Assembly (NCBI GenBank): GCA_008632985.1
Contig: QPGO01000053.1
Location: 310,001-374,000, forward strand
Origin: Psammoneis japonica
Taxonomy: Eukaryota
Length of the DNA stretch: 64,000 nt
Direction of reading: 5' to 3'
The notes beneath the pieces are model-generated. The model had not been told where the DNA came from, made no database searches, and worked only from the letters and a program-made list of their open reading frames with translations. Both the position numbers and the translations under genes were made by a program. Numbering within the stretch: position 1 is the first letter of the stretch; each line of letters opens with the position of its first letter. This document shows, in pieces, positions 31,190 to 56,334 of the stretch.

Positions 31190-31499
31190 AGCTGGATTCG
31201 ATTGTGTTTCGTTCGCTCGCATTTGTGTTGTTTGTTGTGAAGCCATGGTTAAAAAGTTTCTAGATCTCGTGTTAAACTATCAGCCTATCTTGACGTAAAT
31301 GGATTTTACTCTACACAGTAGGGTCCTCTTGCTTTTAAAACGTTGGAGCTCGCTCCTTATCCGTGTAATGACGACCATTTGAGAGGGGAGAGAACTTCTT
31401 TTTTGGCGACAGCGTTGCGAATTTCGTCGAGTGGAGATTACGACGACGCCTCAAGAAGTAGTCTAACGTGCCTTTTCCCAGTCGAAAAGAGGGCAGAAA

Positions 31500-33200
31500 T
31501 CAACTTGGGTGTGCATCTTTGGTTCGTTCTACGTGCAAACCTGACTGCTGTCTCTTAGCAAGCACAACACATTCACTTCCGTCGCCAAAGAAAAGACCAC
31601 CGGTGCCATCCACTCCTTCACATGCCGACTTGAAGGTCACAAGGCATTGAAAGAACTTGTCACAACATGTTCCAATGGGTTCCTTGATGGGGCTTGGGTT
31701 TGGAGATGGCATGGGAGAAAGCATTGGGTAAACGGGCAAATCATTGTTGTCAGCACATTCGCCACCGCGTCCCTGAAAGACTCCACTTGCATCCTCACAG
31801 TTTCCAGGCATCTTGCGCTCACATGTTCCACCAGCAAGAAGGCAGCAGGCACCTTTCCGAGGACAACCTGCACTTTCACAAGTCATGTCATTGCCTTTGC
31901 ACATTCCAGGCTGCAAGGTGCAATCTTCTTCTGAGAGAAGTTTGCATGATTTGTTTGTCTCTGAGTGGCACACCACAAGCTCCTTTCTTCTCTCAATGTT
32001 TTTGAGGGGTGTCAGAGAGGGCATGGCATTGTTGCATGTTGAGTGCTCACCAAGGAAGTGAGCTCCAGCCACACCATTGCAGCTTGACTCTGTGACTTTG
32101 TCAATGCACTCTCCTTCAGGATTGCAGCATGCTCCCGGGACCAGTGGGGTGCCTGTTGGGCTGGGGGGTTGTGGGATGGTGTGGGAAAAAGTGTCGGGCA
32201 AATGCAGGTGGGCAAATCATTCTGTTCTGCAGAAGACTGCACTCTCAATGGGGGAGGCACATGCCAAGGAGGAGATGGCAAGATGTTCAGTGATGATGTG
32301 TTTTGCCCCCAGGGACTGGAGCTTGCTGCTTTGCCAATGCAGCTTGTGAAAGGAAAACTTTGTTCATTTGGGAAACCAGCCCCCTCTTTTACAACTGCAG
32401 GAGGCATTGGAGAGGGAGCAGGAAAAGGGGCAGGAGACAGCATCAGGCAGATTGATGCCCTGTTGTCACCATTGCATCCACTGCTGTGGCCCTCAAAGAC
32501 TCCATTCATGGAGCTGCACATCTCAAAAGTCTTGTGCAGCCACAAACCCCATTGGCAATGCAACAGGCTCCTTTTCTTTGACAACCTGCAAGCTGGCACA
32601 ATGTGCCATCTCCTTGGCATGCTCCCCACCCAAAGTGCAATCTGCCTTGGAATGAAGCTTGCATCTGTTGCTTCTGAAGGGCAAGCAACAAGCTCCTTCT
32701 CTGGGATGCAGCACAGGAGAGGGCACAGGAGACTCATCTGGGAGGGTGTCCGGCAAATTTGTGACAACTCATTGTCATCCACATGTTCCCTGCTCCTGTG
32801 ACCCTGAAAAACTCCACTCCTCTGGTGCATTGCCCCAATGCAGTCTTCTCAAAAGTTCTGTCAGCAAGAAGACAGCCCACAATTTTCCTGGGGCAATGTG
32901 CAGTGTCATCTCCCTTGCATCCTTCACTTTGGCTTGAGAAGTGCAGTCTTTCTCTGAGAGAATGCCACACTTGTCAGCTCCAAATGGCAAACAGCATGTG
33001 CCCTCCATGTCCAAGGGAGGTCCCACCTTGGCAATTGTGATCACACTGTGGCAGCTCACAACTTCCTGGGCAACACCTCTGCACACCTTCATGCGTTGGG
33101 AGTGTTGCTGGTGCCAGGGACTGAACAGCATGTCCCATGTCACCACCAAACTTGATCTGATGCATCTCACTCTCCTTTTCTGCAGCTTTGCACAAAAACT
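31500..33200 (-). pseudogene. Degenerate paralog of the GACC-repeat protein
   Basis: GACC/GTCC repeats with Pro-rich linkers are scattered over several frames (e.g. GACCLPFRSNRC vs intact GACCLKFGDNRC). Lies inside the TpA-depleted domain. Confidence 0.8.
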
Positions 33201-36200
33201 CCCTTGTCAGGGGCTCAAACAGCTAAAACTGGGCAAAGGAACAGTGCCATGAAGTCAACATCCCAGCAGCTGTTTGTCCATGCACTCCAGCTTTCCTTTT
33301 CACCTCCTGGCAAGTGTGTGTCTTGCCCGTGGCATTTTTTGGACAGTTTGTGAGGCAGAAGAGAGTTGCAAAAAACAATGCATGGAAGTGGGGGTCATTG
33401 CACCACAGTTTTTTGTTGCCATCAACCCACAGGGCCCACTCTCCATGGCATGTGAGGTGCTGCAAAAGAGATGTTGACAATGACAGATGAAACTCTCATG
33501 AATTTTGCACACCACACACACCATGTGCAAAATGCTGCAAGAAGGAGGGAAAGAAACAAGGGGGGGGGGGGGGGGGGAGCACAAAGGTGCTGTGCAGCTG
33601 TGAACCCCACGGCAGTGAAACAAGGTTCATTGAGCATGATTTTTGGTGCAATTTTCAGCACCAGGCATTCTTTTGTCATCCTTGCCTGCCAGCCAGAGCT
33701 TGCATTTTTTTTGGCTTGTGTTGGCAACAAGCATTCATTGTGACAAATTGACAAAAATGTTCACTTTGTGCATGTCCCTGCACACACAAAGGTTTTCATT
33801 CAATTAGAGCAGGAAATGTGGCAGGCCAAATTGGTGCTCATGGGAGACTCACCACAGGCTGTGCAGACTGTGCACCTGGAGATGTTCCACTGCATGATGG
33901 CATGCAGCACAGATGCATTGGCACAGCACCTGAGGCTGCTCAAAAACACCTGGCTGCAGGCTTGAATTTTGTGTGCAGCAGATCTGTCACACTTGGTGTT
34001 TCACACTTGAGGGGAGGAGGAGCTCCCATCAGAGAGTGCTGCTGCTCACCCTGTGACAACACTCAGCTGACTTGGACACATCTCTTTCTCCCACTGGAGC
34101 ACAGTTGCAAGTGCAATGCAAGTGTGCAACAAACACAATTGACACGCCTTTTGGGAATGCACCACATTGAGGAATGAGTGGAAACTCTCATTGACTGCAA
34201 CTGAAATTGCCAGAGAATGTGCTGCCAATCAACCAACACCAAAAATGGCTCACTGACATGGCCTGCTCTCTGGACTGTCATTGTTGTGCAATGCAAGTTT
34301 GCAAGAAATGCAGGTGGTTGGCCCTTTGAAGGCACTGCATTGGGCAAAAAGTGGAAGCTGTTTTGTTGGCTGCGTCAAAGTGTGAAATTCTTTGTTTGCT
34401 GGAGCTGCCAAAAGCCCTGGTTTTTTAAGTGCAGAACTTGTCACTTTTGTTGACATGAAAGTTGGCAAGAAAGATTTCTTGGATGATCTGCTTCTGTCCC
34501 TTCCTGGTGCTGTCATTGAAAGACAGCCTTTGCATGATGCAAAGCTTTCAACTCAAGAAAACAAAAAAGTTAAAGCTCAAGCTGTGAGTGGCTGCAATCT
34601 CACACAGAAAAACTCTGATCTAAAAAATCACATGGCTTGACTTTGGCAGAGCATTGTGCATGACAGCCAAAGGAACAGTGAGTTTGAGATCATTGCAGCT
34701 CAAGGTTTGATTGTCAAGTTTGCCAGTTGAAATGAGCCCAGGGCCACTTTCATGGCAAAGAACTGGTGGGAGAAGAGCAGCAGTTGTGGCTTTGCTCAAT
34801 TGAAGTTTCAACTCAAGGTGTGTGACTTTTGTCACACTCAATCCACAGTGCGTGCATTGAGTGAGAAGTTTTGATGCAAACCATGATTTTTTCTTTGCCC
34901 AATGTGTTGTGCTCTCTTGTTTCTTGCAGCAAAGACACACAAGTGACATGCAAAGGAGGGGAGGGGGAACAAGCAAGCCAACTGGCAGGCAAGGAAAGTG
35001 TGTGTTGTGAGCTCATTGTTTTCACACTCAGAAGGTGAACTCCTCCAAGAGTTTTCTGTGCTTTTTGCTGGACCCGGCTTCTGTGTGGACATGACAAACC
35101 ACCTTGTTGGGCTCAACAAAGCTCAGCAGCAGACTCACCTTCAACACCACCAACTCCAAGAGCTTGAGAGTTTGCACAGCTTTCAGGCTTTGCTTTTGGA
35201 GGGTTCAAAGACTCCGAGAACAAATGTCCTCTGTCACAAGGCCACAGCAACAAGTCATGCTGTGCAGGTCAAGGAAAGCTTTTAGGGCCAGCCTGGCATC
35301 AATGCCTTTTGAGCACCACCTCTTGGTTGGTGTTTTGTTGTGGCCCCTGGCTCAACAAAGCTTGTCAATGGGGGCAACATGCTTCAGGAGCAGCAGCATC
35401 AATGAAGTGCAGCTGGTGGGTTGTTTGCAAGGTGTGCTTGAAGGGGCCAAAGCTTCTGGCACACATGTGCTCCAAGTTTGATGTGTGCCCTTGCTGCGGC
35501 ACATGGTGTTGGAGCAACTGAAGCTGATGGCAGAAGCAAGAATGACAGCTTTGTTGCTTGCCAACCCTGCAGCCTTTCCAAGTGGTCAAAAAGGTGTGCA
35601 CTGCCTGTCTTCAATGATGGCCCATTGTCACAGCTCTCTCTCAAATGTCAGCACAGCTTGCACACAGATGCAAGAAGCACAAGTGGCAGTTAGAGCAATG
35701 TCAGGCAGCAACAGTGCACAAAGCAGCAGTGCATCAGCTTGCTGCTCTGGAGCAGTGCCGGCACAACACAAGATGGAGGCTCTTGTTTTGGGTGCAGCAA
35801 GGCACTTTGCTTGTCAAGGACCATCAAAGCACTTTGCAAAAGCCCAAGGATTGAGGCTTTGTGCTGCAATTTTTGCAAAGGTTGCTGTGCCAGAAGGAGC
35901 AATGTCACCTTCTTGAGCAATGGAAGGGCTGTTGGCAGCTTGGTCAGAGGTGCTGCTGGAGGGAGCTGCAGCTGTTGCAGTTTCAGCCAGCATGAGTTGG
36001 GGGGCAAAGTGGCACCCTTGGAGAAGACTCTTTTTGGCAAAGTCAAAGTGCAGTTTTTTATGACTTGTGTTGGTGGGAAACTTCAAATTTTGGTCTTGTG
36101 ACACATCAAATCTCATTGCCATTTTTGCCTGCAGATTTTTTTTTATTTTGGGAAGCTGAGATTTCATGTTTGCTCACATTTTCAATTTGTGTGTGATGGT

Positions 36201-39200
36201 CTTTTTAATTTTAATTTCAAAAGAGACAATGTTTGTTTTGGAACAAACAAACTTCTCACCCAACATCTCTGGGCAAAGCTTGAGTGGCAACAGCATTTTG
36301 CAATCTTGTGCTCACTGCTGTGTGCTTTAATTGACCAGACACAACACCATTTTGTGACATGAACTTGTTCTTGCTGCTCAATTTCCATTGGCCAGCAGCA
36401 CAACTCCATGCAACAAATGCTTGCATTGCCATGAACAACTTGTGTCATCAACTGTCTCAAAGCTCCACAGCCAGATCAAGCTGTCCAGCGGCCCAAGTGC
36501 TGAGCTGGATGATGGCCACTTTGTAAAGACCACCCAAGACCTCCAGAGTCTCATGATGGACAAAAAACCTTCTGCAATGCCAAGAATGCTGGCTGCAAAG
36601 TCATGCTCCTGTTCAACTTTGTGCAGCCCAGGATCTTGAGACTGAGTGCAAAAATTGCCTTTTGAGGCCACTGGCAAATGAAGCTTGTGACAACTTCAAG
36701 ATGGGTGACATTGTGTGTTCCATCTGAGCTCCTAACAAAGCCACAAAATCACAGAGAATTGTGTCTCAAAATGACTGAAGTCAAGCTCAGACAAACATGG
36801 ACAACAACAGCAAATGTTCCAGTGGATGTTGCAGCAGCTTTCAAAAAAAACTTGTGGTTCTGCCATCAGATTCCTGCCCTCCTGGCAAGGACTGCACCAA
36901 GCTTGTGGCCAAAGCCCTGCATCTTGTCAAGATCATGATGCAGATGGGCTGTGGCTGCCCTGGCTGTAAAATGGGCTCTGCCATTGTGTGCAAAGTGCCC
37001 AGTGGAGTTGCCTTCTCTGAGCTCTTCAATCAACAAGCTTCGTCATTTGGGGGCCATGCAAGCAGCCGAAGGGAAAGTGTCATCTCTGCAACCCTGCCAA
37101 ATCTCCCAAGAGCTCTGCTCATGCTGACTGCTGTCCTGCCAAGACAAGTGGTGGGCCAGCTGCAGACAAAAAACTGGCCTGCCTTGTCCCCCCAAGCTCC
37201 CTTGAGAGCAGCCATGCTCCCAATGGTTGCAACTTGACCACCAAGCATGTGCTGTTGTGGGCATTGCCAGGAACACTGACATCCAATGCTGAACATTTTG
37301 AGTTTGCTTGCCCTGCATGCAAGAACCAAGCTGGCACAAAAATGGTCAAAAGAAGAAAGACCAAGACACTGGCAACTCCAACAAGGACACTCGCCCTCCA
37401 AGAAAGAGAAACCTTCCAAGCCTGTCTGGCATTTTGCCAACATTTTTTGTGACATGCTGACAAGAACAAATGCATGGTCTAGAAATGACTTGACAAGTGT
37501 GCCAACAGACAAAGAAAGTGGCAAAACTGGGACAAGCCAAAAGGGCCTTCAGCTGCTGAGTGGGCTGGTGCAAGCACCCTGCCAAGTCCAGCACAGGTGC
37601 TTTGACCAATTTTTCCATTGCGGGCCCTTTTTCAGGTGCTCCATTTGGGCTGCAGCAGTGCATGATCCTGGCCACTGCTTCAGCAAGCAAACTCCTGCAG
37701 ATCTGAGGCACTGAGCCCAAGCCCATCCCTTTCACAATGTCAGCTCCTTCTTTGACACACAGGGCTGCAAAAAGATGCCCTTGGACAATTGCTCAAGAAG
37801 CCAGCTTGCTGTTTTGACTCAGCCAAAAAGTTTCTGCCCCCAGAGCTTTTTTTTCTTTGACAAAAGTTGTTCCCCATGCTTCTTGGCTCTGTTGACACTG
37901 CTCCCTGGCAGGATCCTGGCCAGGCTGCACCTTCAAAATCTGCAGACAGAGTTGCTGCCCCCACCCAAGCCCCTCCCCTTGAGGCAGCACCCCTTGCCAC
38001 TGCTCCCCAAGCTCTGCTGAGTCTTGTGCATGGCCAGCACATGATGGGGAAGCACAAAATGAAGCTCCCACTTCTGTGCTTCCTGCACATCTGTTTGCCC
38101 CAATTCAGGTGGCTTGCCCTCCTTCCGTGAACCCTGCAACCATCATTGTTCTGCAATGTTGACACATCTTGCGCACAACAATCATCTGGATGTTGCCTGT
38201 GCTGCTGCCCATCAAGTCATCAGCAGGCTCTCATTTGCTCCCAAGGTCTCTCTCTCTCTCTTGCAATTGCCACTTGGAATGTTTTTTGTCATTTGAACCC
38301 ATGGACCAACATCTCAGCTGTCATGAAAGTGTGCATTTTGAGTTGCTGCTCCCCAGCATTGAAGACTGTGATGCACAACCCAACTTCTCTGTCAAGTCAC
38401 CAAGGGCACACCACTTCTTGTGCAGGACATCTGGCCATTGCATGGCCATCCAAGCTGTGGCCTCTTTTTGCACTTTCTGTGATGGAAGCCAAGCGTGTTG
38501 CTCTCTCTGAAGCAGCACACAGTCTCATTTCACTGTGCATGATTTTCAGCAAAGTTGGCGCACGCACTTCTTGTTCCTGCAGCTCAGCCATCAGAAAACA
38601 AGATCATTTCCCACACACCAACAGGCCCCCTTTCCCCCATGACAATGATGATGGGGCCAAATCTCAGCCCATTGTCTGTGCCAACTCACCTTCATCTGTT
38701 GTGCACGAGCGCGATGCTGCTTGTCTTCAACTTGCTTGTGAGCAAAAAACAAATGCCAGAGCCAAGCACACAGGCACTCCACACTGCTGGCTCTGTGCTG
38801 AAGCAGAGGCTTTGGCCCAACTGTCTCTGCTGCAAAGCCAGCAGACCAGCTCAATGAGGGACATGGGTTGGCAACTGCGCACCCCATTTTGGTTGAGAGG
38901 AAGAGTCGTGAGTCTGGCTTGCAGATGGGCAACTGCACTTGAAGTGTCGCACCAGCCAAATTGTCATGCACAATGCAAAGAGGAATCTCCTCACACTTTG
39001 AGTCATTGCAGTGCCTTGTTGTCTTCTGCTGCATCTGTCATCTGCTGTGCCACACTGCACAACCTCAAGAGGCACCTTGTCTTCCACATGAGTGCTGCAC
39101 AACCCGAGTGTCAAGAGATTCTCTCCCCCTGGGTTTCACATGGAGGTTTTTTCTTCTCCACAAAAGCACCAGCATGTGGCAAAGTGGAGGCCATAAGATG

Positions 39201-39290
39201 ATTCAGCTTTTCTCTTGCTGCACTGGCTGGAGTGTGCGACTGTGTTTCGGTTGAACACGAAGCGACAAGAAAATCCCACGAGCGGGCGGC
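31540..39290. other. TpA- and CpG-depleted hypermutated domain 1
   Basis: About 20 TA by eye in ~7.7 kb: one in 31741-33180 and none seen in ~37490-39190. Track ORFs are nearly Tyr-free and rich in Cys/His/Gln. Confidence 0.9.
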
Positions 39291-39594
39291 GGTAGCGTTC
39301 TTTGTCACGTCTGTGCGTTGGGAAGGATGCAGATAGAACGACGTCTTCATACACAAGACGAAGATCGAAAGCTGCTACGCAACAGTTACGACAGACTATG
39401 TCAATGCTGTTGGACATATTGTGCACAATACATGAACGCTTTAGTTACTGCTATATCCAAACTCCATAGACGGCATCTTCTTCAAAGCCAGCTCGGACAG
39501 CAGCGGGAGACTGAACACAGATGCACTTGCAGCAATAGAATATCGACTTCAACGCTTCGCCGTCTTCTCTTGCGGCAGGTTATTCGCTACTCTC

Positions 39595-41695
39595 CTAACA
39601 GGAAATGCCTTTGTCACTGCAAGTTGTGCCGCGACCCTTGAAGTTTCCTTTTATTCTGTCGCATGCCGACTTTTGGATCTTAAGACAATTTCCATTCTTG
39701 CAGCAGGCTCCATTCCTTGGACAAATTTCATTCTCACACGTCGTGGCATCTCCTCGATAATCCCCAGCACATTTCGACGCTGTACGGAGTTCGCATCTGT
39801 TATCTCCGAACTTCAAACAGCAAGCTCCCTTATTGGGGTCCACTGGCTGTGGAGGAGGAGGGGGAGTGGGAGGTGCCGTTTGACGCTTGTCACTCCCAGG
39901 GCATTCAATACTCTCACAACTCGTTCCAAAGCCCTGAAATTTGCCACTGAGCCGATCAATGCACCTGTTTCTTTTCTGATTAGGGACACAAATTCCTGAC
40001 TCTCGGCAGCATCCGCCCCTCTCACTGCAGCGGGCTGATACGCAGGTCTGAAACAGCAAAACGCAGGAGCGAGTGGCGTTTAGGATCAGAATCATTCAAA
40101 CAATATCATATTCGACAATTCTTACCTTTCCAGCCTGGAATATTCCATCCAACTTTTCACACGAGCCCTCCGTGACATCTTTGCATTCTCTCCTGTTAAC
40201 AACAAGCGATCATTACAAGACGTTCCGCTTAAGAAGCACTTAAAGGAATAAACAAAATGATGTATGCAGATAATCGATACGTACTTGTACTTCAAGCAGC
40301 ATGCTCCAGGTGGGTCGCAAATTCCAGCGCTGCACTCGGTGCCAAAACCCTTGAAGTCACCTGAAGATCATTCAATAAACGAGAAACAAAGTTTGAGAAC
40401 ATAAGTAGTGACACAGAGCCGCATCCTTCTGTGGTTATGAAAGCACTCACCTCCGCACCACTTCTTCTTGATTTTATTGCACACTTTCTTTCCTTTCACA
40501 GTCGTGCAGCAAGCACCTTTCAGTGGGCATGTCTTTTCATCACAGGTTGTGCCCTACAGACAATATTAGAAAGATACACGACACAGAGGTAAATTGAGAT
40601 GAAAGACTTCCAAATGAAGCCAGACTCACTGCCGGTAAAACAACGACGGCAACTTACAGGTCCTAGGTAGACGCCCGTCTTACAGAATTTTGGCTTGATA
40701 ACGTCACAGTTTCCGCCCTCTAAGTCACAGCAGGCACCGCGAGGATTGCATTTCTTATTGGCAGGCTGGGGAACAAGAGCACGACGAACATCAGTTCACA
40801 GACGGTTTCAAAAACGAAGAATGAAATCATATTGTGGGAGGGACTAACTTACACATTCGGTTTTGGAACCCGTGAAAAAACCTCCCTTGTCATCGCAGAC
40901 CTTCCTTCTTAGCACAGCGCAAGATGCATCAAGCAAGCAGCAGGCGCCTTCTTGGCAATCGCCACACGTCGTACCCTCGCCCGCGAAATCGCCTAAATAT
41001 TTGAAATGGACACGAGTGTTATCAGAGGGATGCAAACGAGACGTAGTCACTAAAACATTACTCATTACTGACGTACCTTTCTTTTTGTCACACTCAAACT
41101 TCCTCGCTAGGAAGCATTGTCCGTCTGGATCGGGATCGCAACATCCCCCATAAGCTTCTGGGCATCTGTCGGCACGACAGGTGATTCCATCTCCAAGATA
41201 TGCGCCGCCTATAGAATCGCAACTGCTTTCGTCGAGCCACGTGCAAACCGGTGGATTTGCAGATGGTTGACAACACCCTCCCTTAGGAGGGTCAGTATTC
41301 TGAAACATGTAAAGATAAACAGAAGCAATGAGAATGCAAAAACAGTGAACGAAAACAGTTGAAGCGTTTGGATTCGCATACCGTCAGGATCCGCTGAGAC
41401 CCAGCCTTTGATAGAAGAAGTGAAATTACAGAGTAGAAAATGTGAGAACAGGAAATAAAATCATGCTATCATCGTGATAGTTGCTAATTCACTCTTACGT
41501 ACGTTGGAAGAGGCACCGTCCTTTGGTCCGTACTCCGCCGACACGTCTGAGGAAGAACACAGCGTAGGAAAGCAAATTCGTGAGCCATTCCTGTCTACTC
41601 GAAACAAGTGGCGCCAACATTAAACGTTTCATACCTGTCGCCTCGCAAAGAGCAAACGCAACCAAGAGCAAAAGACCGTTGTAATTGAATTTCAT
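39595..41695 (-). CDS. Secreted cysteine-rich protein with tandem G(A/G)CC repeats, 10 exons
   Basis: Signal peptide MKFNYNGLLLLVAFALCEA. Nine GT-AG introns splice into one frame (…ASSN|AGSQRILT|NTDPPKGGCC…). Repeats GACC-x5-8-C-x7-C-…G.(Y/F).G.GTTC. Stop TAG at 39595. Confidence 0.85.
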
Positions 41696-43026
41696 CTTTG
41701 TCTTCGACTCGATACTTGTTACTAATCTTACGAAATTCTTTTTTGTGAGATGGATTCCGGGGCGCCACGATCAACACAAGATTGTGACGCGAATTGTCGT
41801 AGTGCGGTTGTGCCGAGAGAGAGTCTTTTGGTGGTCACGAACCACCTCATATATTAAATGATATTAGTCCCTATGCACTTGCGTAGCTTTTCTTCTTTTT
41901 GATTAATGACTGTTCTTTTAAAAATGATTTGTCGCTATCAGAAGTCATAGTCATATGATCAATTATAGACATCCATTACATAAGTCATAGATTTTATCGG
42001 ATTTCAAAGCAGTATGGTGTAGTCATACTATAAATGTTGCTCCACATTTATACTCTAGCAGGTCATCATCCGGCTTACTTAGTTGCTAGCTTGCAGAGTT
42101 TTCTTCGAGACTTTTCGTTATTGGTCAGATCACTCATCCATGTCCTTTCGGCGCAGAATCCTGTGGTTTTTGTACTGGAAATAAAAACAATTATTGCTAG
42201 TGACCGAATGACCATGGCATCTGATGCGACGACTCATTCGACGAGCTCGTGTGCACGCTCGGGAAACGCACACGCCCACACAAGTGGAATCATGGATTCC
42301 TCCTCCTTGATTTGTTTCCATGCAAGGCTTCCTCAATGCACTCCGCTTCAAACAGTGTGCTCTCCAGGATTTGGGTGCAACAGGAAGGTGTCTCTTGATT
42401 GGGAGCTGAAGTGCTGAGCTGCTGTGGTCTGTGGTGTGACAGCGAGGTGGATGACCGGATGGCGTGTCCATCGACGACAACTTTGGGCCCATCAAAGGGG
42501 CGAAAAAGGTGGCATGAATCACAGATCATTGCCCCCCGCACTGAGCCATTGTGTGCACATCTTCATTCATTGGGTGGACCCCTTGCTGATTAAATGACAC
42601 GGCCACTTGTTGGAATCTCACCTTTTTTGTTTGTTTGCACGGTGCCCGCGTTTGTCCTTCATCTGATTGTTGCCCACAGACACTGTGGTGTTTTTTTTGT
42701 GTCCCCACTTCAACCAAACAATTGACGCACCTGACTGGCACATGTTTGTGGATGTTCCAGCATTTTCATTGTGTGCTCTCTTTCTTCATTTGCACTCAGC
42801 GACATTTCCAATTTCCAGTCGCAAGCTGGGCATTTGATGTGTTCGTGTTGTTTGATGACACAACACATTTTGGTGGCAGCATGAATGGCAGTGTGATCAT
42901 GAACACATGCTGTGCATTGAGTGAACTGAATCACGTTGAAAACACTTTGTCTTTCTTGTGATCATTTCACGGCAATTTTGCCATGTCAATTTTTGCTCAC
43001 TTCATTTTTTTCCGAAATCGACACAG

Positions 43027-43286
43027 GGCCTGTTCCAGCTCCAGGTGCTCCTCGCGGGTTCGATTCCCATCATTTGGAAATTTGTGCATTTGGCACAATT
43101 GACTTTTTCCAAATCCGTTTTTTGCCAAATCAAAGGGCAAGTGCACACTTTACATGTGTTTTCGGGTGTGCACTCACCTTTCGATTTTCGAAACGATCAA
43201 AATTGAAGGAGTTGATTGCGCTAAACTGCGCAGAAAATCGGCCTCTCGAGTGATGAAAAGCAGAGCACCTGGAGCTGGAGCAGGCC
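43027..43286. mobile_element. MITE-like element, 260 bp with 24-bp terminal inverted repeats
   Basis: ggcctgttccagctccaggtgctc (43027-43050) vs gagcacctggagctggagcaggcc (43263-43286), 23/24 match. No clear TSD. Confidence 0.75.
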
Positions 43287-43479
43287 ATTGGGGAATTCAC
43301 GCAGCCTCACTCAGCCTCCATGGCCCTTTTTCCTTGTGACCATGTGTCTGATTGCATCACCTCCACCATCCCACATTGCATGAGACAAGTCCGTTGATGC
43401 CGTTGTCTCCGCTGATGATTGTTCCAAAGACTGCAATAGCAGCGTTTGTCTTGACACTTCTTCACGTGATGACACACAT

Positions 43480-44100
43480 CAATGTCAGCCTTTGTTGTGC
43501 ATCAGTGTTTTTCTGTTGACTTGTTTCCACAACTCACTCCAAAACAAAGCAACAAATGATGCCAGGAGCAAGCAATCTTCGTGAGCTTTCCTCTTCACAA
43601 TGAGGGTGCAAAACAGCCAGAGTTCAAGCGGACATCGTTGGCACATGTCAGCTCCTGTCTGGTCTGCATGCAAATCAGTTGGAAGAAGGAGGTCCTTCTC
43701 TGGATTGAAATCTTCAGGGAGATTGTTGCATGTGTTGAAGCACCATTTGATGCAAACTGTTTCTCCCAGGTCACAGTCATCCACGGGGACAAACTTTCGG
43801 CGCTGTTCTGCATCGATTGGTTGACATTTAGACTGTGATGGTCATCAAAAAGGGAGTGGGCAAGCAAGTCCTTTGACATGTCCTGCATTTGAAAACAGGT
43901 GGCTTGGCACCCAGAAATGATGCGTGTGTCTGGTTTTGGCATGCACACCTTCATGCAGATGCTTTTCAGCAACTGTTTGCACTGAAGAGCCTTGCATGCA
44001 TTGAACTTCTTTTCTTGTGGAGATGTCATGGCAGAGTGAGCAGCGAATCATAAAATCCTTGAGTGGCACAGGAATTGTCACACAGTGTGATCAGCTCAAG
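43480..44100 (-). mobile_element. Plavaka-like transposase relic
   Basis: KDLLAHSLF…KWCFNTCNN…LLLPTDLHADQTGADMCQRCPLELWLF reads as WY..TY…LLP..LYAD.TG.D.YQRYPLE after restoring Tyr. Resemblance to Plavaka-type transposases is from memory only. Confidence 0.5.
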
Positions 44101-45086
44101 AGAAGCTCCCTCAGCCAACGTGAAGCTGCAACCAAGCAGAAGGGATGACTGTTCCTTGCCAACACAATCAGGGGGTCAGCCGGCGAAACTTGCTCTTCTT
44201 CATCAATGCCGCAATTGTCGGCAGAGTTGGTGCTGGGAAGCATCTCAAAAGGACACAGCTCATCCTCATCGTCTCCATCTGAGTGAGATCCATCACAGTG
44301 CTTGTGGAGTCATTGTCTTCTTCAATGGAGGTGCTGTTCTCAAAATCCAAAACAGCACCGCTGAACTCTGCATCGCATCCCGCCGTGGCACCACATGACA
44401 AAAGGGAGGAAACAGAGGAAGCACCTGTTGGGGAGCCGATGTCGGATCTGTCGGTGGGGTTTCTGGAGGTGCCCTCAGAAGTTGGGCAATGTTGGCAGGA
44501 GGACATCAACAAGGACTCCTCATCGTGGCCTTGACGAATGAGCAACACAGTGGCTTGGGACAGCATGCCCAAATCACTGGTGGCAACGTTGACACAACCA
44601 ACTCAGCAAGGCTGGTGCCAGCAATGGCAGAAACAAACCATGTGCAAGGATCTGTTTGCAGGGTGGGGATTGCCAAGACAGACAAAAACAAAGGGAGAGT
44701 CATTGGAAGTGAGTGTGAACTGATTGATTTTAAAATCAGATTGTTGTGCGGGTGTGAGAGCTGATTGAGAGTGCACGTGCCTTGCAGCCAGACAGACATG
44801 AATGTTGGAATGATGGGAAATGGAATTTGAAAAAACAGGGATCCAAACATTCGGTCATGGCCAAATGCAATGTTTTTGAAACTCAGGCAAGCAAACTCAA
44901 GTGTTGCATTGGCGAACATGTGATGACAAACAAAATCAATGGCCACACAATGTTTGGGTCACAACATTTGCAAATGCAGGGAAATCCAGGTTGCAGCGGC
45001 AAATGGCTGGGTGCCAATGTTCACATGACTGGCGCTGGGAGGAGCACTGACAAAACAAACCACTCAGAAAACAACAACACAAAGTC

Positions 45087-46500
45087 ATGGCAACCACGGT
45101 GCAGAGACTTGTCAATCCAGCCAAGTTGATGGACGATGACAAGAAGGTGGGCAGAGACACAGTCAAGGTGAGAAACCATGTCAAAGAAAAGGTGTTTCTC
45201 AGCATCATGTTTGTCTTTGATGCAAGGCAGCTGGAGGAAACCGGCATGCTGCACCAAGACTGCACCCAGAATTGCAGACTGACACTGATGGATGGAATGC
45301 TGGCAGACCTGCCAGAAGTGGAGCAAAAAAAAAAACACCTGCATTTCCTGTGGATGAAAATGAAACAAAACAGGTTGTGCCAGGCTTGGCCAGCAACAAA
45401 GCAATCCAATGCATGTCAGGCCAAGCAAGACAAATTTCACAGCAAGCGCTGTTGCCAAGGCTTGTCGTGGATGAGGGGATGACAAACTGATGTCAGGAAC
45501 ATGTTGTTGCTGACACAACACAGTGCTTTGTGCATGCTGTGATGAACACAATTGCATCTTGCCTTCACCAGAATGACTCCAGGAGCAATTGTTGAATCCA
45601 ACATCATTGCAGACAGTGACTGTTTGTTGCAGCCGGTCATGGGAAATGCTTGTTGGAAGAAGAGCCTCTCCAACAACACAAGGTTGGGCATGTTGCATGC
45701 TGAGGCATTCACCCACATGCTCCTGAAGAACAATTTTGTAGCGTGGCACATGGAGCACACAAGAGCAACAACAAGGACAGTCGTTTGTGATGTCAGACCA
45801 TGGTGCGGAGCTTGATGACCAAGGAAACCCCACCAGAAGGCAAGACTTGTGTGGGACGACAATGCCAGATGTCAGCGTTGCTGAGCCAAAGGATGCAAAC
45901 GGATCAAGCTCATTTGCCATTTTGGAAGGAGACCCCAAAGAGCCAACAGAGCAATGTGCAGCAGAGGAAATGTTGAACAAATTCAAAGAGGCACAGGAGA
46001 AGTCCCTCGAGAGCTGCAACGAATGCATCAAGAAGGTGAGAATGGAGCAAACAACACAGGAGCAATTGGTCATTTTGATGGAGGTCACGAACAAGCTGGA
46101 GAGCAACAAGAACCTGCCTGACAGGGAACGTGGCACTGAGAAAAGAAAGTGCTTAAGATGCCTGGAGCACTTCACAGCAGGGAACTCCAGGAATGGAGTG
46201 GAAGAAGGTGCACCGAGGACATGATGAAAGACACCCAGGAAGTGCAAAGGATGGTCCCTGAGGGCAAACAAGTTCTTTGAGAAACTGGTGAGCGAAATCA
46301 AACAAGATGTTGTGAGCAAACAACTGGGACAATGGGAGGATTTGCACAGGAAGTTTGTGGCAGGGTGCAATGAGAGAAAGTGGAGGATGACAATGATGAG
46401 TCAGGGGACAAGGGCAGCCACATGGTGAACTGCACCAAGATGTGCAAGCTGCAGTTGATGCCAGTTTGGTGGATGACACACATAAGCAGCATTGACGTCA
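45087..46500 (+). mobile_element. Degenerate transposon accessory ORF
   Basis: Broken frames with VRNHVKEKVF, EAFTHMLLKNNFVAW and GWSLRANKFFEKL fragments, divergent from the Plavaka-like relic. Assignment is by recollection only. Confidence 0.35.
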
Positions 46501-47149
46501 TTGCAAATGACATTGCAGAGCAAATCTAAATTGAAAAACTGGGTTCCAGGGTGCTGATTGGCAAGTGAATTTGGAAGGATGCATCACAAAATGGGCAGTT
46601 GGAATGCCAGTCACCCAATCCATTGTCAGTCAGTTGACAGAAATCATCAAATGGAAAGTCGTGCAAGAGTCGACTTGTTGTGTTGCAACAAACTCATTGG
46701 TTTGCGCGTCCTTGGTTTGAAACCACAGACATTCATTGGAGGAGCCGGACATTCATTTGTTTCTGGATCACACTTGTTTGTCACAAACAGCTGTGATTTG
46801 TGTCAAATCAGACTCATTCTTCAGTTGTGCACACATTGACGTGCTTGTGCTCACACATGTTTTGGCAGACTGAAGCCTGGCCATCTGTGAACATGAGGAT
46901 TCATTGATTCGGGCCCCTGATGTTCTGCCCACACAACACACCACAGATGGAGTCAAGGGCAGCTGTGATGAGCCATCTGATTGTGGCTTTAAAGCAAGCT
47001 CAATGAGCTGACTCTGAGCCCGTTTTTGGATGGCTCATCTCTCCAATCTGTTTTGCACTCTTTGTTTGCCATGTTCTTCATGATGTCATCAAGGAGCTCA
47101 CTCACCAAAAACACTGCAGCACCAGGGCACACAAAAGAAAAAAGAACAA

Positions 47150-47410
47150 GGTGCAACAAGTGCAAGTCACCAGGGTGCAGCTGCCCAAGCCACCCAAAGT
47201 CACCAGGATGCACAAAAAATCTCAACTCGCCAAAAGTGCTTCTGCTCTAAATCCAACCACCCGCCCAGCCGCCCAGCCACACAGCGGAGGGCAATTTTTG
47301 GCAAACATGTCTCTGCTCACATGCATGGGACATTTGTCCATTTGCCAAGCCAGCTGTTTTTTTTTTGAAACATTGAAAAACAAGCAAAGAAACAACACCC
47401 AGCCACAGTT
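47150..47410 (+). repeat. Dispersed repeat copy A (partner at 62780-63005)
   Basis: Shared ccaggatgca…aatctcaactc…gcaatttt(t)ggcaaa..tgtctctg…ttgtccatttgccaagcca. Confidence 0.8.
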
Positions 47411-48919
47411 GATGTGCACGCCAAAAAAGCAGTCATGCTTCTTGGTGCGTGCACATGCTGGAGTTTTGCGGCTCACCCACTTGCACATGTTTGGTCTCAC
47501 CAACCCCAAACTCACCACGCAGCTTGCAAACACCTTCTCCATGCTGTTGACAGTTGTTGCCATGTGAGCAAATGCAAAAGCCAAAAACAAGTGAGCACAA
47601 GACCCGCAACTCAACCCAAGCTGCAAATGCAATTTTGCTGTGTTGTCCATGAATCTGTGCAGATGTTTTGTCTCCATTTTCTTTGTGGTGAACTTTGAGC
47701 AGCTCCTCTCTTTTTTGTCTTTTGTGTGCTGGAAACAAGTCCACAACATGCAGTGTGCACAAGCAGGGACTGAGTTGTCCTGATGCCACCAGCACAGTTT
47801 TCGCTGCCTTTTGCTGCACAGAACAGCAAGTGGCTGCTCTGGCTGGAGCTGCCGGTCACAACTCTCCCAGAACTCGGTGTTCTGGTGGCGGGTGGTTGAA
47901 GAGCATCTCACTTGGCAGGCAGGAGTGGAGCTTGTCCTTTCTTGTGCACAAACAAATGAGCTGAGTGACAATGATCCCAGAAACATCAACACAAGAAATC
48001 ATGCATGTCCCAACCTTGTCCCAACATTTAAATTGGTTTTTGCTGCATGGCAAGGTTCAAGCAGCTGCTTTCCAATCAACCAATCACCTGCTTCAACTTG
48101 TTGCAGTCTCCTCAAAACACAGGATCCAAACCACAGGGAACACACATGAAATTGCCTGCCAAAACATGCATCACACCAACAAATCATTGCCATCTTCAGC
48201 AGGGTGGACAAGGGCAATGATGAGTTGAAAGGGAGTTGTCATGGTGCTCAGGAGATTTCTCCATCTGCCGTTGTTGTTGCATTTTGGTCCACACAAATCC
48301 CTGCACCAATCTTCCCCTGATCAAATTTCAACAAAACGCGGTGAGCAGAAGTTGACAGGGTGAAATTCTCACAGAAGTCTCATGGAAAGGACAAAAATGT
48401 TGCAACGGAGGTCGCTTCATGCAACGGACACAGTGGGTTTGTGGGAGCTCACCCTCTGTCAACATTCACTTGGACTTCGCCAAAGCCAGAACAAGTTGAC
48501 AGCCAGAAAATTCATGCAGAAGTGTCACAGAGAGGACAAACAAATGCAATGTAAGTTGCTTCACTCAACGGACCAAGTGAGTTCATGGTCGCCTCACTCT
48601 TTGCACTGCCCTGACAGCTGAGCATGTGAACATCACATCCAACGTGAAAACATCAAATGCAAAAAATTTGTTGACATTTTTGAAAAATTGCTGAACGGAA
48701 ACATTTGGGGCAACAATCAAATGCAACTGCAAAGATTTGAGTGAGATGGTGCCGGGCTGGCTCGGCTGTTGTTGCATTTAAGTCGGAATGTGAAAAATGA
48801 ACAATTTTTGTCATGGGGCAATGATCGTGTGAAGGCTAAATAAAAACATGGTGTGAAAATAAAAAAGGTCAACTGCCAACAAGTGAGTGTGCATTTTAAT
48901 CAGCAATGTGCCGACGCAA

Positions 48920-50420
48920 TGGGCAAGCCATGTGCAGGGGTTATGAGTCCCAAAAAACAGGGTTTGGGCCAATTTCTGGCACAAGTTCCATGTGGCAAAT
49001 TCACGCAGAACATCTTGTTCATCGTGCTTTTCTCCCATGCTTTGCAAAAAATGGGCCACAACATCAAAGAATTGACTTCAGTCAGAACAGCTGACACTTT
49101 GCGTGCTTGCTTTTTGACAACAAACACGATGATTTCCATCATTCTGTGAAGCTCCACAATTGGAAAATGTTCGCCGTGGTGGGCCCGCAATGAAGTGTTG
49201 ATCACCAAAATTCTGAAAACAGAATTTTGAAGTGTTTGTGCACAGAGGCGTGTCACTCATGCAAAAGTCATCAGGCAAAGTGTCAATGGTTTCAGGGGAA
49301 AAGGATTCCTTGAGGTGCTGGCCGTTCACGGCAGAAGCACGAGAAAAAAAATCAGCTCAAACCCTGACTTTCATGTTTTTTTTTTGCACAAAATTTCTGC
49401 ATGATTTTTGCACCACAGTGCACATGGCTCATCCAAGAGTGCACTCACTGGGTCAAAGCCCCAAACAATGACCTGCAACCAATGCACTCTTTTTTGCCTC
49501 TCTGACATCATGCACCAATCGTGGATGCGGACGAAGGTCAGAATGACCACCACACAGAGTTGACTGGAAGCCAAAAATTGCAAATTGATCCCATGATGTG
49601 ATGTTGACACACAAGGTGTCAATGTCAATCACATCCAGACAATCTGTTGTCACAGTCTTGTTTGCTGATGGGCCTTTTGTCCTGTGGGACTGGTGCAATT
49701 GCTTTGGGCCATTGAGAGCTCATTCGGAGAAACCCAGAACGATTGACTGGAATTTGTTCTCATGATTTTCGCTTTTCGTGTTTTGTTCCACTTTCGTTTG
49801 CACTCAATCTTCAAGCACAGTGCAGTCTTGCCACTGTCCAAGGCAGTGAACATGGATGTCAACAACAACTGATGTCAATGTTTTGCTGTTTCTGTCACAG
49901 GTGCAGCGCTGACAAGCCATGTGCAGGGGTTGTGAGTCCCGAAAAACAGGGTTGGGCTGATTTCTGGTGCAAAACTCACATAGAAAATTCGCGCAGAATG
50001 TCTTGTTCATCGTGCTTTTCCTGTGCTTTACGAAAAATGGGCCATGACCTCAAGGAATTGATTTCAGTCACAATGGCTGACACTTTGCGCACTTGCTTTT
50101 TGATGACAAACACGACGATGTCCACCACTCAGCAAAATTCCATCATTGGAAAATGTTTGCCGTGGTGGGACCGCAGTGAAGTGTTGATCGAATTTCTGAA
50201 AATGGAGCTTTGAAGTGTTCACGCACAGAATCGTGTTGCTCATGTTAAAATCATCATGCAAAGTGTCAATGGTTTCAGGGGAAAACGATTCCTTGAGGCG
50301 TCAGTGGAGCAGAGAAGCACGGCAGAAGCATGAGAAAAAATCGGCCCAAACCCCAATTTTCACAATTTTTTCTGCACAGAATTTCCACGTGATTTTTGCA
50401 CCAGTGCACATGGCTTGTTC
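48920..50420 (+). repeat. Diverged ~500-bp direct duplication (48920-49430 and 49910-50420)
   Basis: Collinear from caagccatgtgcaggggt to gatttttgcacca…gtgcacatggct. Differences are dominated by TG/CA swaps. Confidence 0.9.
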
Positions 50421-50448
50421 TGCGGGCGCATGCACGTGCAGAAAATCT

Positions 50449-50571
50449 GGGGTGACACCCAAAAACAGGGGGTCTGGTGCCCGTTCTGCATCAGCTGCCA
50501 TTGGATGCGGGGTGACGCCCAAAAACAGGGGATCTGGTGCCCGTTCTGCATCAATTGCCATTGGGTGCGGG
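50449..50571 (+). repeat. Tandem repeat, 2 x 60 bp
   Basis: ggggtgac(a/g)cccaaaaacagggg(g/a)tctggtgcccgttctgcatca… repeated with period 60. Confidence 0.9.
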
Positions 50572-51125
50572 ACGTTAAACCCCTTCCAATCACAGATTCG
50601 CAACCAACCAGTCATGATGAGATGCAAAAGGATGTCTGCTTCTAAATGAACCTGTTGAGTTTTGCCACTCGAACGGCTGTCGCTAAAGTGAAAATCCGGG
50701 TGCTGCACCCGGGCGCGGCCGAACTGAACAATGTGCAGCGGCAAAATTGTGCTCTCACCACAAAAGAAATTTGTGCTCTCACCACAATGTAGAAATGTGC
50801 CAGGCACCACATAGAAGAAAAAGCACTGTCAATGGATGAGGAATCTCGACCGAGCCCTCCGACGACACAACACTCTCGAGGTCATTGCTTGCCGTCTCCG
50901 CAAAGATTTTGTGCTTTTGGGAGAGACTCTCAATGCACTGCATGCATTGCTCTAAGCCATGTGATTCTTGGAGTTGCAACGTGGAGTTGCTTTGTGCATG
51001 GATTGAAGCCCAGAGTTGTCCACAGGCAGAGCATTTCCTGACATGAGCTTGTTCCATTTGTCATTCTTGTCACATTTCTGCGGCAACTGTTCCATCAAAA
51101 AAGAAGGCAACTGTGGAATCTGACT

Positions 51126-54100: not shown

Positions 54101-56334
54101 GCACGGGGCGGAGGTTGTCGCGGCTCCAAAGGATCCTTCTCCTGGCACATGCTTGAGCAGAAGTTCCCAATGGAGTTCGTGTTTGGTGTTCTTTCTTGCT
54201 TTTTTGCTTTCTCGCACCTCACCACAGCACACAACTGGGTGATGGCAAGAAGACTGTACAAGGATGAAAACCCTGAGCTTCCGGACCACTTCTGCGCACA
54301 GCACCCACCACTTTTCCCTGGATTTGGGTCAGCATGTCATGAGCCAGGGGAGGCACAATCGGGCCAGGGACTTGAAAGAACTTGGGGGCACCTAAAAGAC
54401 CAAAAGAGAGACTGTGACAAAACAAATAAAACGGCCGACATTGAGTCAATCTTTGAAGCCACATCAAGGTGGGAGGAAACGCATGCCGAAGATGCCTTTG
54501 CTGCCGAGCCAACAACACCAAAATCCGGGTGGGATGTCATTGCGAATTGCCACAGAAAGGATGCCGGCATCGATTTCAAGAGCTGCGCACACTGCTCGTT
54601 AGAGACCTGCCAGCCATTGACGCGCCAGGAAGCAATCAGAAAATCAGCGATCGTTGGTGGATGCGTGGTGCACATGCCAACCTTCCACTTCTGTTCAGCG
54701 TGGAAGGAACAAGCCATTGACCGGATGGTTGGTGTGGATGATTCGACAGGGGGATTGACAATTGAGCAAATCACCATACAACAAGAAGCCAAGAAGAAAA
54801 TGAATCAAGCATGCACATCCGCTAGACCCACTCCAGTCAAGTCTGCGTTCATGGAGATTGTTGGCACCCACCTTCTAAACAACACGCTGTCACCTCTTGA
54901 AGGGGAAGACTGCCGTTCATTCCTGTTGCGACGGTCTCAGCACTTCATTTCAGTGAATCAAATGGGGTTACATGGAAAGAAGAACCAAGGCAAGAAAAGA
55001 GGAAGAAAGGTGAGACGAGTGATCACGAATTAGATTTGGAAAACAAAAAGTGGGAAGCTGACGCTGGGGCAGAATTTGAGAGCAACTTGCAAAGAGAACT
55101 GCCAAAGGATGCAAACAAGGATGCTGAAGAGGAATCAAGAGCTCGTGCATTGTTGTCTGAATTAAAAGAGTCGGCGCAACAGATGCCGATGGTTCAACCG
55201 TCTCGTGACGCCAACCGTGACTCGGTTTCGACAAAGCCAAGGCACCACAGGCTGTGCAGCCGGGCTTGCGGACACTTCAAGGAAACAACCGTTCGAGCAG
55301 GAGTGCACGCTTTGTGCAATTGTGAAGTGTTCATGAGAAATGGTTGGTGTTGCGACACCCTCATCCACAACTCAGTGGAGCTCGGGGAAACACCACCAGC
55401 AAAATGCCGCGATGCCGACGGCGTCGGTTGGGACAACATCAGAATTGGATGGACAAGACAGTTGATGAGCACCGTGTTTGGTGGAGAAGGGGAAAAGAAC
55501 AATGCAGCAAACATGCACAAGACTCACTTTCCAGCAGTTGATCTGCTCTTTCACTTCCAATCTGTTGTTGAAGCTGTGCCGGTTCCATGGATGGCAGACA
55601 TTGACACCAAGGAGCCAAAAACCCTGGGCATCACAACAGCTCGCAATGCTCACACAAACCAAGCATGCGTTGCATCAGTTCAGCCAAATTCAAAGGGAAG
55701 AGCAATTGTGGACGATGTCACAGTGGGGGTGAACGGAGTTGCTGTTGTGTTGCAGGACGATGGATCCCTTCTGGCGGGGCACAAGCTGGATTGCATTGTT
55801 GACATGATCAATCGCTGCAAGGAAGAGAGTCGCATTGTTAGATTCGATGTGCTGCGCAAGCACAGGAAGGGGCAAGAAGGGCAAACGCATGGCTTGCCGC
55901 ACAGTTGGAAGTTTTCAAAAAGTTGTTTGCAAAAGAGATGGGGCTGAAAATGGCCACGCGATTCACGTTGAGCGAAGGCAACAAGGGCATGGGAACAGGT
56001 CTTTTTTGCGACAGCAAAGGGGGGTGAGCTTGCACCCAGGCCTGGGTTCATTTCGGAATCTCCATCCGGCATGGTCAGGTTCCTGGGACTGCAAAAAGGA
56101 AGAACCCCCGATGGAGATGTTGGCGGCAAGTTCCATGACGCTGTGATGCAACTGAGGAAACGTTTCAACTTTCAGCCCCTCGATTGCTCTCATGGTCGAA
56201 ACTGCACCCTCGTTGACGGAGAGGACAATGAGGAAAAGCCACTCATTGTTGATCTTGAGCACTGGAAAGATCTTTCCAAGAGGAAACAGTTTGGAAAGAC
56301 TAAACTTCCGTGGTGTCCATTAGGATTTCTATGA
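51126..56334 (+). mobile_element. Mutator/MULE transposon relic (WRKY-like Zn finger, DDE transposase, SWIM)
   Basis: CADHGC…GAHNH zinc finger. LEMDHAKGF, CLKDGSLAL, DCWAHF (CxxH) and GLERTWGHLK give the MULE D-D-E layout. LCNCEVFMRNGWCC is SWIM-like. Interrupted by stops and frameshifts. Confidence 0.72.

Follow-up and report, generated by a model that had tools for sequence, protein, structure and literature searches.

Dense, rule-bound transitions in silent, repeated or mobile DNA are known from several systems, namely repeat-induced point mutation (RIP) in fungi, the decay of methylated CpG sites, the hypermutation caused by APOBEC and ADAR enzymes and, more remotely, the erosion of CTAG in enterobacteria. 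Here we describe a locus in a 64-kb stretch of nuclear DNA (the window) of the diatom Psammoneis japonica, in which two blocks have lost nearly all of their TpA and a varying share of their CpG in favor of TpG and CpA. Between the blocks lies a spared island with an intact gene for a putatively secreted, cysteine-rich protein of repeated six-cysteine modules, named GACC modules after their first residues, and at the margin of the first block lies a broken (dead) member of the same family. All results come from this one assembled sequence and this single window. We consider that the locus probably reflects regional TpA/CpG hypermutation of silent domains, which spared an active gene as a unit.

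Among the known systems, fungal RIP shares several features with this locus: region-limited and nearly saturating transitions in silent or repeated DNA, a dinucleotide rule, sharp borders and intact neighbors, and cellular genes next to repeats can be caught by it as well. RIP, however, turns CpA into TpA and thereby raises TpA, whereas the blocks described here have a TpA observed/expected (o/e) ratio of 0.04–0.06 and doubled TpG/CpA. The TpA/ApT index, which in RIP-affected DNA lies above about 0.9, ranged from 0.00 to 0.19 in 500-bp windows of the blocks. RIP furthermore needs duplicates and mutates both of them, whereas the island paralog is untouched, and the TpA changes seen here would require A-to-G or T-to-C chemistry and not the deamination of cytosine. 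RIP depends on an enzyme of the RID/DNMT4 type and on a sexual stage. Diatoms carry DNMT4 enzymes of unknown function that are related to the fungal RIP factor RID (PMC9998398).

The decay of 5-methylcytosine (5mC) at CpG sites in vertebrates and plants likewise turns CpG into TpG/CpA in silent DNA, on either strand at random and independently at each site, and leaves unmethylated genes alone. Strand-random CpG loss matched by TpG/CpA is what we found here, and this process fits the CpG part of the signal, provided that the DNA is indeed silent, as we infer. Methylation of transposable elements (TEs) is known in diatoms. In contrast to the locus described here, 5mC decay leaves TpA alone, whereas TpA loss is the more complete of the two signals and reaches further at every edge. 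ADARs, which are animal enzymes, change A to G with a preference for a 5' U. APOBEC editing has been described for long terminal repeat elements (PMC4866542). Both types of enzyme cause dense, context-dependent transitions in mobile DNA, but their action on only one strand, of RNA or cDNA, produces a one-sided trace, whereas at this locus the strands are equally affected, the rule is strictly TA plus CG, and remnants of cellular type lie inside the blocks. Finally, the scarcity of CTAG in enterobacteria is ascribed to very-short-patch repair. The T:G to C:G bias of this repair can likewise erode TA within a short palindrome to CA/TG, but the effect is a mild, genome-wide one on a tetranucleotide in bacteria, unlike the block-limited and nearly total TpA loss reported here. 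The locus is therefore filed as regional hypermutation unlike any named system; its TpA part matches nothing known to us or found, and literature searches at the level of titles and abstracts brought up no account of blocks with TpA changed to TpG/CpA, in diatoms or elsewhere.

Extent, strand symmetry and context of the TpA and CpG loss

TA and CG were counted by region from a 500-bp dinucleotide profile and from a map of all their occurrences in the window. Normal DNA (positions 1–31464) contains 1249 TA (o/e 0.58) and 1772 CG (0.99), with a TG+CA o/e of 1.13. Within the 7,631 bp counted for block 1 (31560–39190) there are only 18 TA (0.04) and 40 CG (0.09), and within the 21,801 bp counted for block 2 (42200–64000) 91 TA (0.06) and 601 CG (0.47), the TG+CA o/e being 1.81 and 1.71, respectively. 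If TA and CG at normal density were fully converted to TG/CA, arithmetic from the normal densities predicts a TG+CA o/e of about 1.9; as the 1.7–1.8 of the blocks comes near this value, the excess can be understood as the outcome of complete TA and CG conversion. The coordinates of the blocks and of all other features are collected in Table 1.

The TA edges are sharp. TA keeps its normal density until 31464, is back at 39293, stays normal until 42198 and is sparse from there to the end of the window; the few TA of block 1 include those at 31530, 31556, 31729 and 32390 and a lone one at 39194. The CpG edges do not coincide with them: at all three borders CpG loss begins later or ends earlier than TpA loss, by 60–700 bp, the CpG-depleted core of block 1 (approximately 31860–38500) lying 300–700 bp inside the TA edges. 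Block 2 retains about half of its CpG even though TpA is gone. The losses of TpA and of CpG are thus distinct signals that have a common territory and different extents. In the margins at 31470–31860, 39237–39296 and 42205–42273 TA is lost and CG is kept, and the two margins that border the island are CG-dense (about 10–12 CG per 60–75 bp). Outside the blocks, an isolated patch of approximately 0.5 kb (15460–16050), intergenic in normal gene-dense DNA, has a TA o/e of 0.15, a CG o/e of 0.25 and a TG+CA o/e of 1.71, which shows that the affected unit can be very small.

Two copies of a repeat of about 560 bp in block 2 allowed us to follow the same sites twice. As an unmutated control pair we used two tandem threonine-dehydratase-like paralogs at 20.6 and 23.2 kb. 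Where one ancestral TA or CG is resolved independently in each copy, paired CA/TG double differences are expected, and indeed 15 of the 27 adjacent double differences between the repeat copies exchange CA and TG, compared to 1 of 85 in the control genes. Moreover, 14 further sites have CG or TA in one copy and CA or TG in the other; counting CG alone, 11 sites have it in one copy and CA/TG in the other. By our estimate, discordant and half-converted sites together come to about the number of TA/CG that such a stretch would have held, so that most of the conversion would have taken place after the duplication. The two copies also differ by indels and at about 8% of positions away from pyrimidine-purine steps; set against a TpA loss of approximately 95%, this background leads to the estimate that TpA changed around a hundred times faster than the rest of the sequence.

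Both strands were affected alike. TG and CA number 845 and 870 in block 1 and 2260 and 2355 in block 2, their scatter in 200- and 500-bp windows is binomial (χ2 per degree of freedom 0.8–1.2), and a search of the blocks for long strand-biased runs of TG or CA found none. This balance, together with the binomial scatter, indicates that each site was hit independently and on either strand, which favors duplex DNA as the substrate over a single edited RNA or cDNA strand. With respect to their neighbors, the TA that survive are not randomly drawn, as 59 of the 109 lie in TTAA, CTAA or TTAG, compared to 14% in normal DNA, while ATAT and CTAC do not occur among them at all. Under the premise that the blocks formerly had the TA contexts of normal DNA, the exponents fitted for the per-strand rate according to the base 3' of the A were 0.33 for TAA, 1.02 for TAG, 2.02 for TAC and 2.25 for TAT, and this additive per-strand model performed far better than a single rate (likelihood-ratio χ2 of 123, 3 degrees of freedom). 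Such a preference looks like the specificity of an enzyme that works on one strand at a time. Selection for the avoidance of TA and CG was also considered and rejected, given that the blocks hold broken genes and that duplicate copies have ended up with different dinucleotides at corresponding sites.

Table 1. Coordinates of the features discussed (positions in the window; o/e, observed/expected)
Feature	Position	Strand	Remarks
Block 1, TpA-depleted DNA	31470..39292		TA o/e 0.04, CG 0.09 (core 0.05), TG+CA 1.81
Block 2, TpA-depleted, CpG only about half depleted, to window end	42199..64000		TA o/e 0.06, CG 0.47, TG+CA 1.71
Spared island, normal TA and CG	39293..42198		From TA/CG positions; about 300 bp of 3' flank, gene, about 500 bp of 5' flank
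Intact island gene	ATG 41695, stop 39595	-	Signal-peptide-like start, 9 six-Cys modules
Exons of the island gene	41695-41635, 41546-41503, (41405-41382 optional), 41299-41077, 40992-40853, 40765-40658, 40553-40451, 40360-40285, 40192-40126, 40047-39595	-	
Dead GACC-family member, about 7–8 modules	31503..33206	-	Stops, frameshifts, lost CC motifs
3' part of the dead copy with an open frame of 238 codons	31500..32216	-	One frame with four modules; Tyr 1, His 8, Met 6
Internal duplication of the dead copy	31696..31987 with partner 32721-33006	-	13 of 44 shared steps CA versus TG
Dead-copy segment best aligned to the island gene	32461..32733 versus 39606-39867 (modules 8–9)	-	Purine/pyrimidine alignment
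Two copies of a repeat of about 560 bp, block 2	48909-49470 and 49896-50457	+	Independent TG/CA outcomes at the same sites
Plant-type O-methyltransferase remnant, block 2	56512..57139; C-terminal 123-aa ORF 56512-56883	-	PF00891

An intact and a broken gene of one module family

A preliminary description of this DNA had placed a ten-exon gene with normal TA and Tyr content inside a sharp-edged island of about 2.9 kb, and the TA positions, which put the island at 39293–42198, bear this out. The gene has nine exons, or ten if an optional in-frame exon of 24 nt is counted, with AG/GT at every junction, and there are 30 TA in its coding sequence and 7 Tyr in its product. This product of 424 or 432 residues has a hydrophobic, signal-peptide-like start followed by nine modules of about 40 residues, each of which retains all six Cys columns; three of the modules lie in the last exon (exon 9) without an intron between them.

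The island is spared throughout. TA and CG o/e are 0.40 and 0.82 in the exons, 0.75 and 1.07 in the introns (802 bp), 0.80 and 1.14 in the 3' flank (302 bp), and 0.82 and 1.08 in the 5' flank (503 bp). As introns, promoter side and flanks are as unmutated as the exons, the whole transcription unit escaped, including those sites that selection on the protein cannot guard. The earlier proposal that expressed genes are protected or retained by selection therefore holds only in part: site-by-site selection as the cause of the sparing is ruled out by the spared introns and flanks, which are compatible both with protection and with selection against events that affect the whole region. The sparing is thus a matter of the region and not of individual sites, and its most likely basis is the state of the chromatin, or of DNA modification, at an active gene. 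The positions of the borders, about 300 bp past the stop codon and about 500 bp before the start codon, fit the footprint of an active chromatin domain.

The module follows the pattern G-A-C-C ... C ... C ... G-x-aromatic-x-G ... C ... C over about 40 residues. Neither Pfam nor NCBIfam contained a model that matches it, and word-based protein searches with the last exon of the island gene returned no match. A HMMER search with the same exon against 1.84 billion representatives, in contrast, yielded 779 relatives at E≤1e-3; these are mostly long proteins, in each of which 5–20 stretches matched. Four of the eight clusters of relatives that we examined are named, three of them for metagenome bins of Phycisphaerae/Phycisphaerales and one for an Acidimicrobiia bin. 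Where the best relatives of this diatom gene with its many introns are named, they are proteins of Phycisphaerae (Planctomycetota) with up to 23 modules, gene transfer between bacteria and diatoms being a possibility. Two module profiles were built, the first from the nine island modules and the second from 1,747 modules of 151 relatives, and with both of them credible modules were found in the whole window only in the island gene and, on that strand too, at 31.57–33.00 kb. Counted over 1,740 residues of the family, the aromatic column shows Y 985 times, F 553 times, W 148 times and H 7 times, and C not once; the nine island modules have Y, F, F, Y, F, F, F, Y and F at this position.

The second locus is a dead gene. 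Its main frame has seven internal stops between 33206 and 32216, and halves of its modules overlap in different frames (32595–32696 with 32578–32625, and 32512–32571 with 32468–32530), which leaves no space for an intron and puts the number of sure frameshifts at two or more. Inspection by eye further shows a CC motif that is short of a codon and, inside the 238-codon open part, one module whose GACC start is out of frame. The family model recognizes five modules at E<0.05, plus fragments, and there is no intron-sized gap between or within the seven to eight modules. The copy contains 4 TA and 16 CG in 1,704 bp, of which 3 TA and 12 CG fall within the final 360 bp beside the block edge, none of them above 31858; the damage accordingly fades toward the 3' end, as had been noticed before, though mainly with respect to CG. 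Its residue composition is shifted too, the open part having 0.4% Tyr compared to 1.6% in the island protein and 2.4% in the family, 3.4% His (0% and 1.0%) and 2.5% Met (0.2% and 1.1%). A metagenome scan with an exact 34-mer of the copy gave 0 matches, and a protein scan found a single locus (52% identity over 31 residues), whose composition is normal and which added no information.

How closely the two genes are related matters for their use as a comparison. With plain blastn, no sequence in the window resembled the island at the DNA level, while short-word blastn gave 64% identity over 152 nt and 75% over 55 nt, and tblastx 43–55% identity over 22–37 residues, which is no better than the similarity of the island modules among themselves. 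An alignment in a purine/pyrimidine alphabet, which hides all transitions and in which matches below about 100 bits are noise, reached 78.5% identity over 275 nt in the best segment (32461–32733 with 39606–39867). Of 258 aligned bases 39 differ by transversions, and transitions and transversions stand at 78:39, versus 189:153 in the control paralogs. When the open part of the dead copy was compared by BLASTP, the island protein ranked 130 of 152, behind long relatives, so that this part stands no nearer to the island gene than to the rest of the family. Judged by these alignments, the two genes are old, distant paralogs that share a module family, a strand and a neighborhood (about 6 kb apart), and they are not a recent tandem pair. 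A frameshifted, nearly TA-free paralog was correctly recognized in the preliminary description, whereas its being a tandem copy was overstated, and the notion of a natural before/after control does not survive the rank and the 39 transversions.

Nevertheless, the TA/CG-less state of the dead copy is derived and not a trait of the family. Two of its model-aligned modules have Cys (TGC) at the aromatic column (at 32619 and 31901), and a third does by eye, the remaining modules having Phe; a change from TAY to TGY is exactly the one proposed for TpA. The peptide pair that had first drawn attention to the locus is real by tblastx and shows one such Tyr-to-Cys site. The island gene has TA or CG at 14 of the pyrimidine-purine steps that it shares with the dead copy, and in the latter all 14 of 14 read TG or CA, whereas the control paralogs keep 23 of 54. 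Likewise, the internal duplication of the dead copy is CA in one half and TG in the other at 13 of 44 shared steps, compared to 4 of 159 in the control. It is the Cys at a column where none of the 1,740 family modules has one, the 14 of 14 sites and the discordance within the internal duplication that support a derived state. Neither of the two outcomes that had been named as speaking against the first interpretation, a copy translated intact or relatives that also lack Tyr, was found: the copy is not intactly translatable, and its relatives are rich in Tyr at the aromatic column.

Former content of the blocks and surrounding DNA

To the dead GACC copy we can add, from its domain match, the remnant of a second gene of cellular type in TA-less DNA. 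Among all 196 open reading frames (ORFs) of at least 75 aa in the blocks, a single one, in block 2, exceeded the cut-off of its Pfam family, and it belongs to a plant-type O-methyltransferase (PF00891, E 3.5e-13, 49.8 bits with a cut-off of 22.3). Further upstream pieces of this remnant can be seen by eye in other frames, and the ORF has His where the three best-matching solved plant-type enzymes have a conserved Tyr. A word-based protein search with it gave no match among longer proteins.

The same Pfam scan of the 196 ORFs detected no transposon domain, only seven sub-threshold matches to unrelated families, and nothing in it identifies a mobile element in block 1 beside the dead GACC copy. 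Three ORFs of 407, 347 and 348 aa at 51042–55944 (plus strand) show, by eye, WRKY/FLYWCH-like and SWIM-like zinc-finger patterns. Pfam returned nothing for them even at E≤10, and in a protein language-model atlas one of them lies near Mutator-like element (MULE)/SWIM clusters at 0.84–0.89, below the 0.9 line; these ORFs may come from a degenerate Mutator-like element, which is a weak lead only. Two other ORFs, of 356 aa (38131–39198, plus strand) and 459 aa (45024–46400, minus strand), are by our estimate longer than expected by chance when TGA is the only stop, and neither matched any family.

The surroundings of the blocks are those of ordinary diatom DNA. The first 31 kb of the window are gene-dense, with clean ORFs of up to 865 aa, and the threonine-dehydratase-like gene at 23260–24234 (minus strand) has its best matches, at 64–79% identity, in diatom transcriptomes and genomes, with Odontella, Grammatophora, Cylindrotheca and Thalassiosira among its best relatives. 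It belongs to the control pair, two tandem paralogs similar to threonine dehydratase or threo-3-hydroxyaspartate ammonia-lyase (20620–21660 and 23225–24280, minus strand) with 69% nucleotide identity. Their nearest non-diatom relatives are betaproteobacterial among the matches listed.

Possible explanations and what they mean

The observations can be brought together as follows. The dead GACC copy, apparently intronless, lies at the margin of a presumably silent domain of 7.8 kb. In such domains a process that acts on DNA would change about 95% of TpA to TpG or CpA and, depending on the block, 50–95% of CpG in the same way. Hits fall site by site with an equal chance for each strand, and a single hit abolishes the self-complementary target, which leaves TG/CA as the end state; at TA, the frequency of hits depends on the base 3' of the A, being highest for C or T, lower for G and lowest for A. 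On either side of a complete transcription unit, which comprises promoter side, exons, introns and 3' flank, the process comes to a halt over no more than a few tens of bases. The blocks would be, or would once have been, modified heterochromatin, the CpG loss would stem from the deamination of 5-methylcytosine, the TpA loss from an enzymatic A-to-G (or T-to-C) change, and the dead gene would have been caught through its position within or beside the silent domain. A spread from a putative TE, as first suggested, fits the position of the dead copy at the graded margin of the block.

Several points weigh against this explanation. The 'active' status of the island gene is deduced from its intactness alone, and the sequence is taken at face value. 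We know of no enzyme or DNA modification that gives TpA-specific transitions. The CpG and the TpA loss differ in their edges and in their completeness and may be two unrelated processes. For most of block 1 (33.2–39.2 kb), none of the searches for its former content gave any identifying match. The indels of the dead gene did not arise from this process; loss of function may have come first, in which case the location of the gene in the block may say nothing about the destruction of host genes. The earlier claim that the process also destroys host genes is accordingly only half sustained: genes of cellular type do carry the signature, but frameshifts are not made by transitions, and death may have preceded the conversion. 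Lastly, there is only the one window, and the context model presumes that the original TA contexts resembled those of normal DNA.

The order of events is also at the center of the alternative that fares best, although we still consider it rather unlikely, namely that the dead gene is irrelevant to the process. According to this explanation, indels killed the gene first, its DNA then became silent chromatin, and TpA and CpG decayed by slow neutral erosion. The frameshifts and a lost Cys codon, which are not products of transitions, would be accounted for, as would hits that are independent at each site and free of strand runs, like those of ordinary CpG decay, and the graded CpG loss between the blocks. 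The rates are harder to reconcile with it, since a TA loss of about 95% at a divergence of about 8% elsewhere amounts, by the estimate of a roughly hundredfold difference, to hypermutation, and the surviving TA are fewer than ordinary mutation would, again by estimate, have regenerated at that divergence. What then separates this alternative from regional hypermutation is only the order of events and their intent.

It is less probable, in our view, that the blocks are an artefact of base calling or consensus building, although this is the main caveat. TA and CG would then be real but heavily modified on both strands, with 5mC at CpG and some other mark at TpA; a long-read caller would take each modified base for its transition partner, a consensus built from such reads would settle on TG or CA at random, and the island would be an unmodified active gene. 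All the changes are transitions at self-complementary dinucleotides, as symmetric modification predicts, and both the random choice between TG and CA and the context effect would be equally expected from the specificity of a methyltransferase. A per-column majority consensus, however, would presumably leave TA/CG intact about half the time, whereas 0.04–0.09 was observed, and the rest of the assembly is clean, as the long ORFs of the first 31 kb attest. The blocks also bear marks of real age, namely the 8% divergence outside pyrimidine-purine steps and the indels between the repeat copies, and the frameshifts in two gene remnants. Common base callers cope with 5mCpG, we are aware of no TpA mark in diatoms, and the artefact would itself require an undescribed, dense DNA modification.

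A homology-triggered defense of the RIP type, in which the GACC copy was hit as a duplicate of the island gene, corresponds to the suggestion that the process recognizes duplicates, and we regard it as very unlikely. The repeat pair of block 2 was mutated after it had been duplicated, as such a defense would have it, and the kinship of diatom DNMT4 enzymes with RID (PMC9998398) points the same way. Yet the island gene, the supposed partner of the dead copy, carries no such mutations even in its introns, and with an identity of 64–75% over 55–152 nt and transversions at 39 of 258 bases the two are far too dissimilar for RIP, which requires about 80% identity over some hundred bp. Furthermore, most of the block DNA has no second copy when compared within the window, and the dinucleotide rule is the opposite one, TpA being lost and not gained. 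The suggestion of duplicate recognition does not fit this pair. Least credible of all is that the blocks were mutated before they arrived, as edited RNA, cDNA or extrachromosomal TE copies, or that the island was inserted later into a mutated block: although the sharp TA edges, the lone TA/CG-poor patch of about 0.5 kb in normal DNA at 15.5–16.0 kb and a dead copy that lacks intron-sized gaps, as a retro-copy would, where the island gene has 8–9 introns, could be read in this way, editing of one strand would be one-sided and not balanced and binomially scattered, the island edges at 39.29 and 42.20 kb show neither target-site duplications nor terminal repeats, the CpG edges inside the TA edges at all three borders resemble graded spreading in place and not an insertion joint, the three intronless modules in the last exon of the island gene make the lack of introns a poor proof, and no poly-A is seen by eye after the stop of the dead copy.

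Within regional hypermutation, a more specific proposal can be made tentatively, as a possibility that we hold with less conviction than the regional process as such. It is that of a new, defense-like mutator of diatoms that converts the TA and CG of silent chromatin to TpG/CpA, is bordered by active units and erases genes collaterally. At TpA it would make A-to-G (or T-to-C) changes strand by strand and according to context, with TAY preferred over TAG and TAG over TAA, a chemistry not known from any DNA mutator, and the GACC pair and the O-methyltransferase remnant would be its first examples.

If the sequence is right, the locus implies a regional mutator with an undescribed dinucleotide rule, by which TpA as well as CpG become TpG/CpA, whose reach extends beyond mobile DNA to genes of cellular type, and which gives way to an intact gene over only a few tens of bases, sparing even neutral sites such as its introns. 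For practical purposes, blocks of this kind defeat homology searches, as the one ORF in 196 above its Pfam cut-off illustrates, and annotation pipelines will label them unknown, whereas alignment in a purine/pyrimidine alphabet recovers the homology that has been lost in them. For the biology of diatoms, the locus raises the questions of which DNA mark or enzyme acts on TpA, how active genes are insulated from it, and what share of diatom gene loss and of 'dark', unalignable DNA is due to this process.

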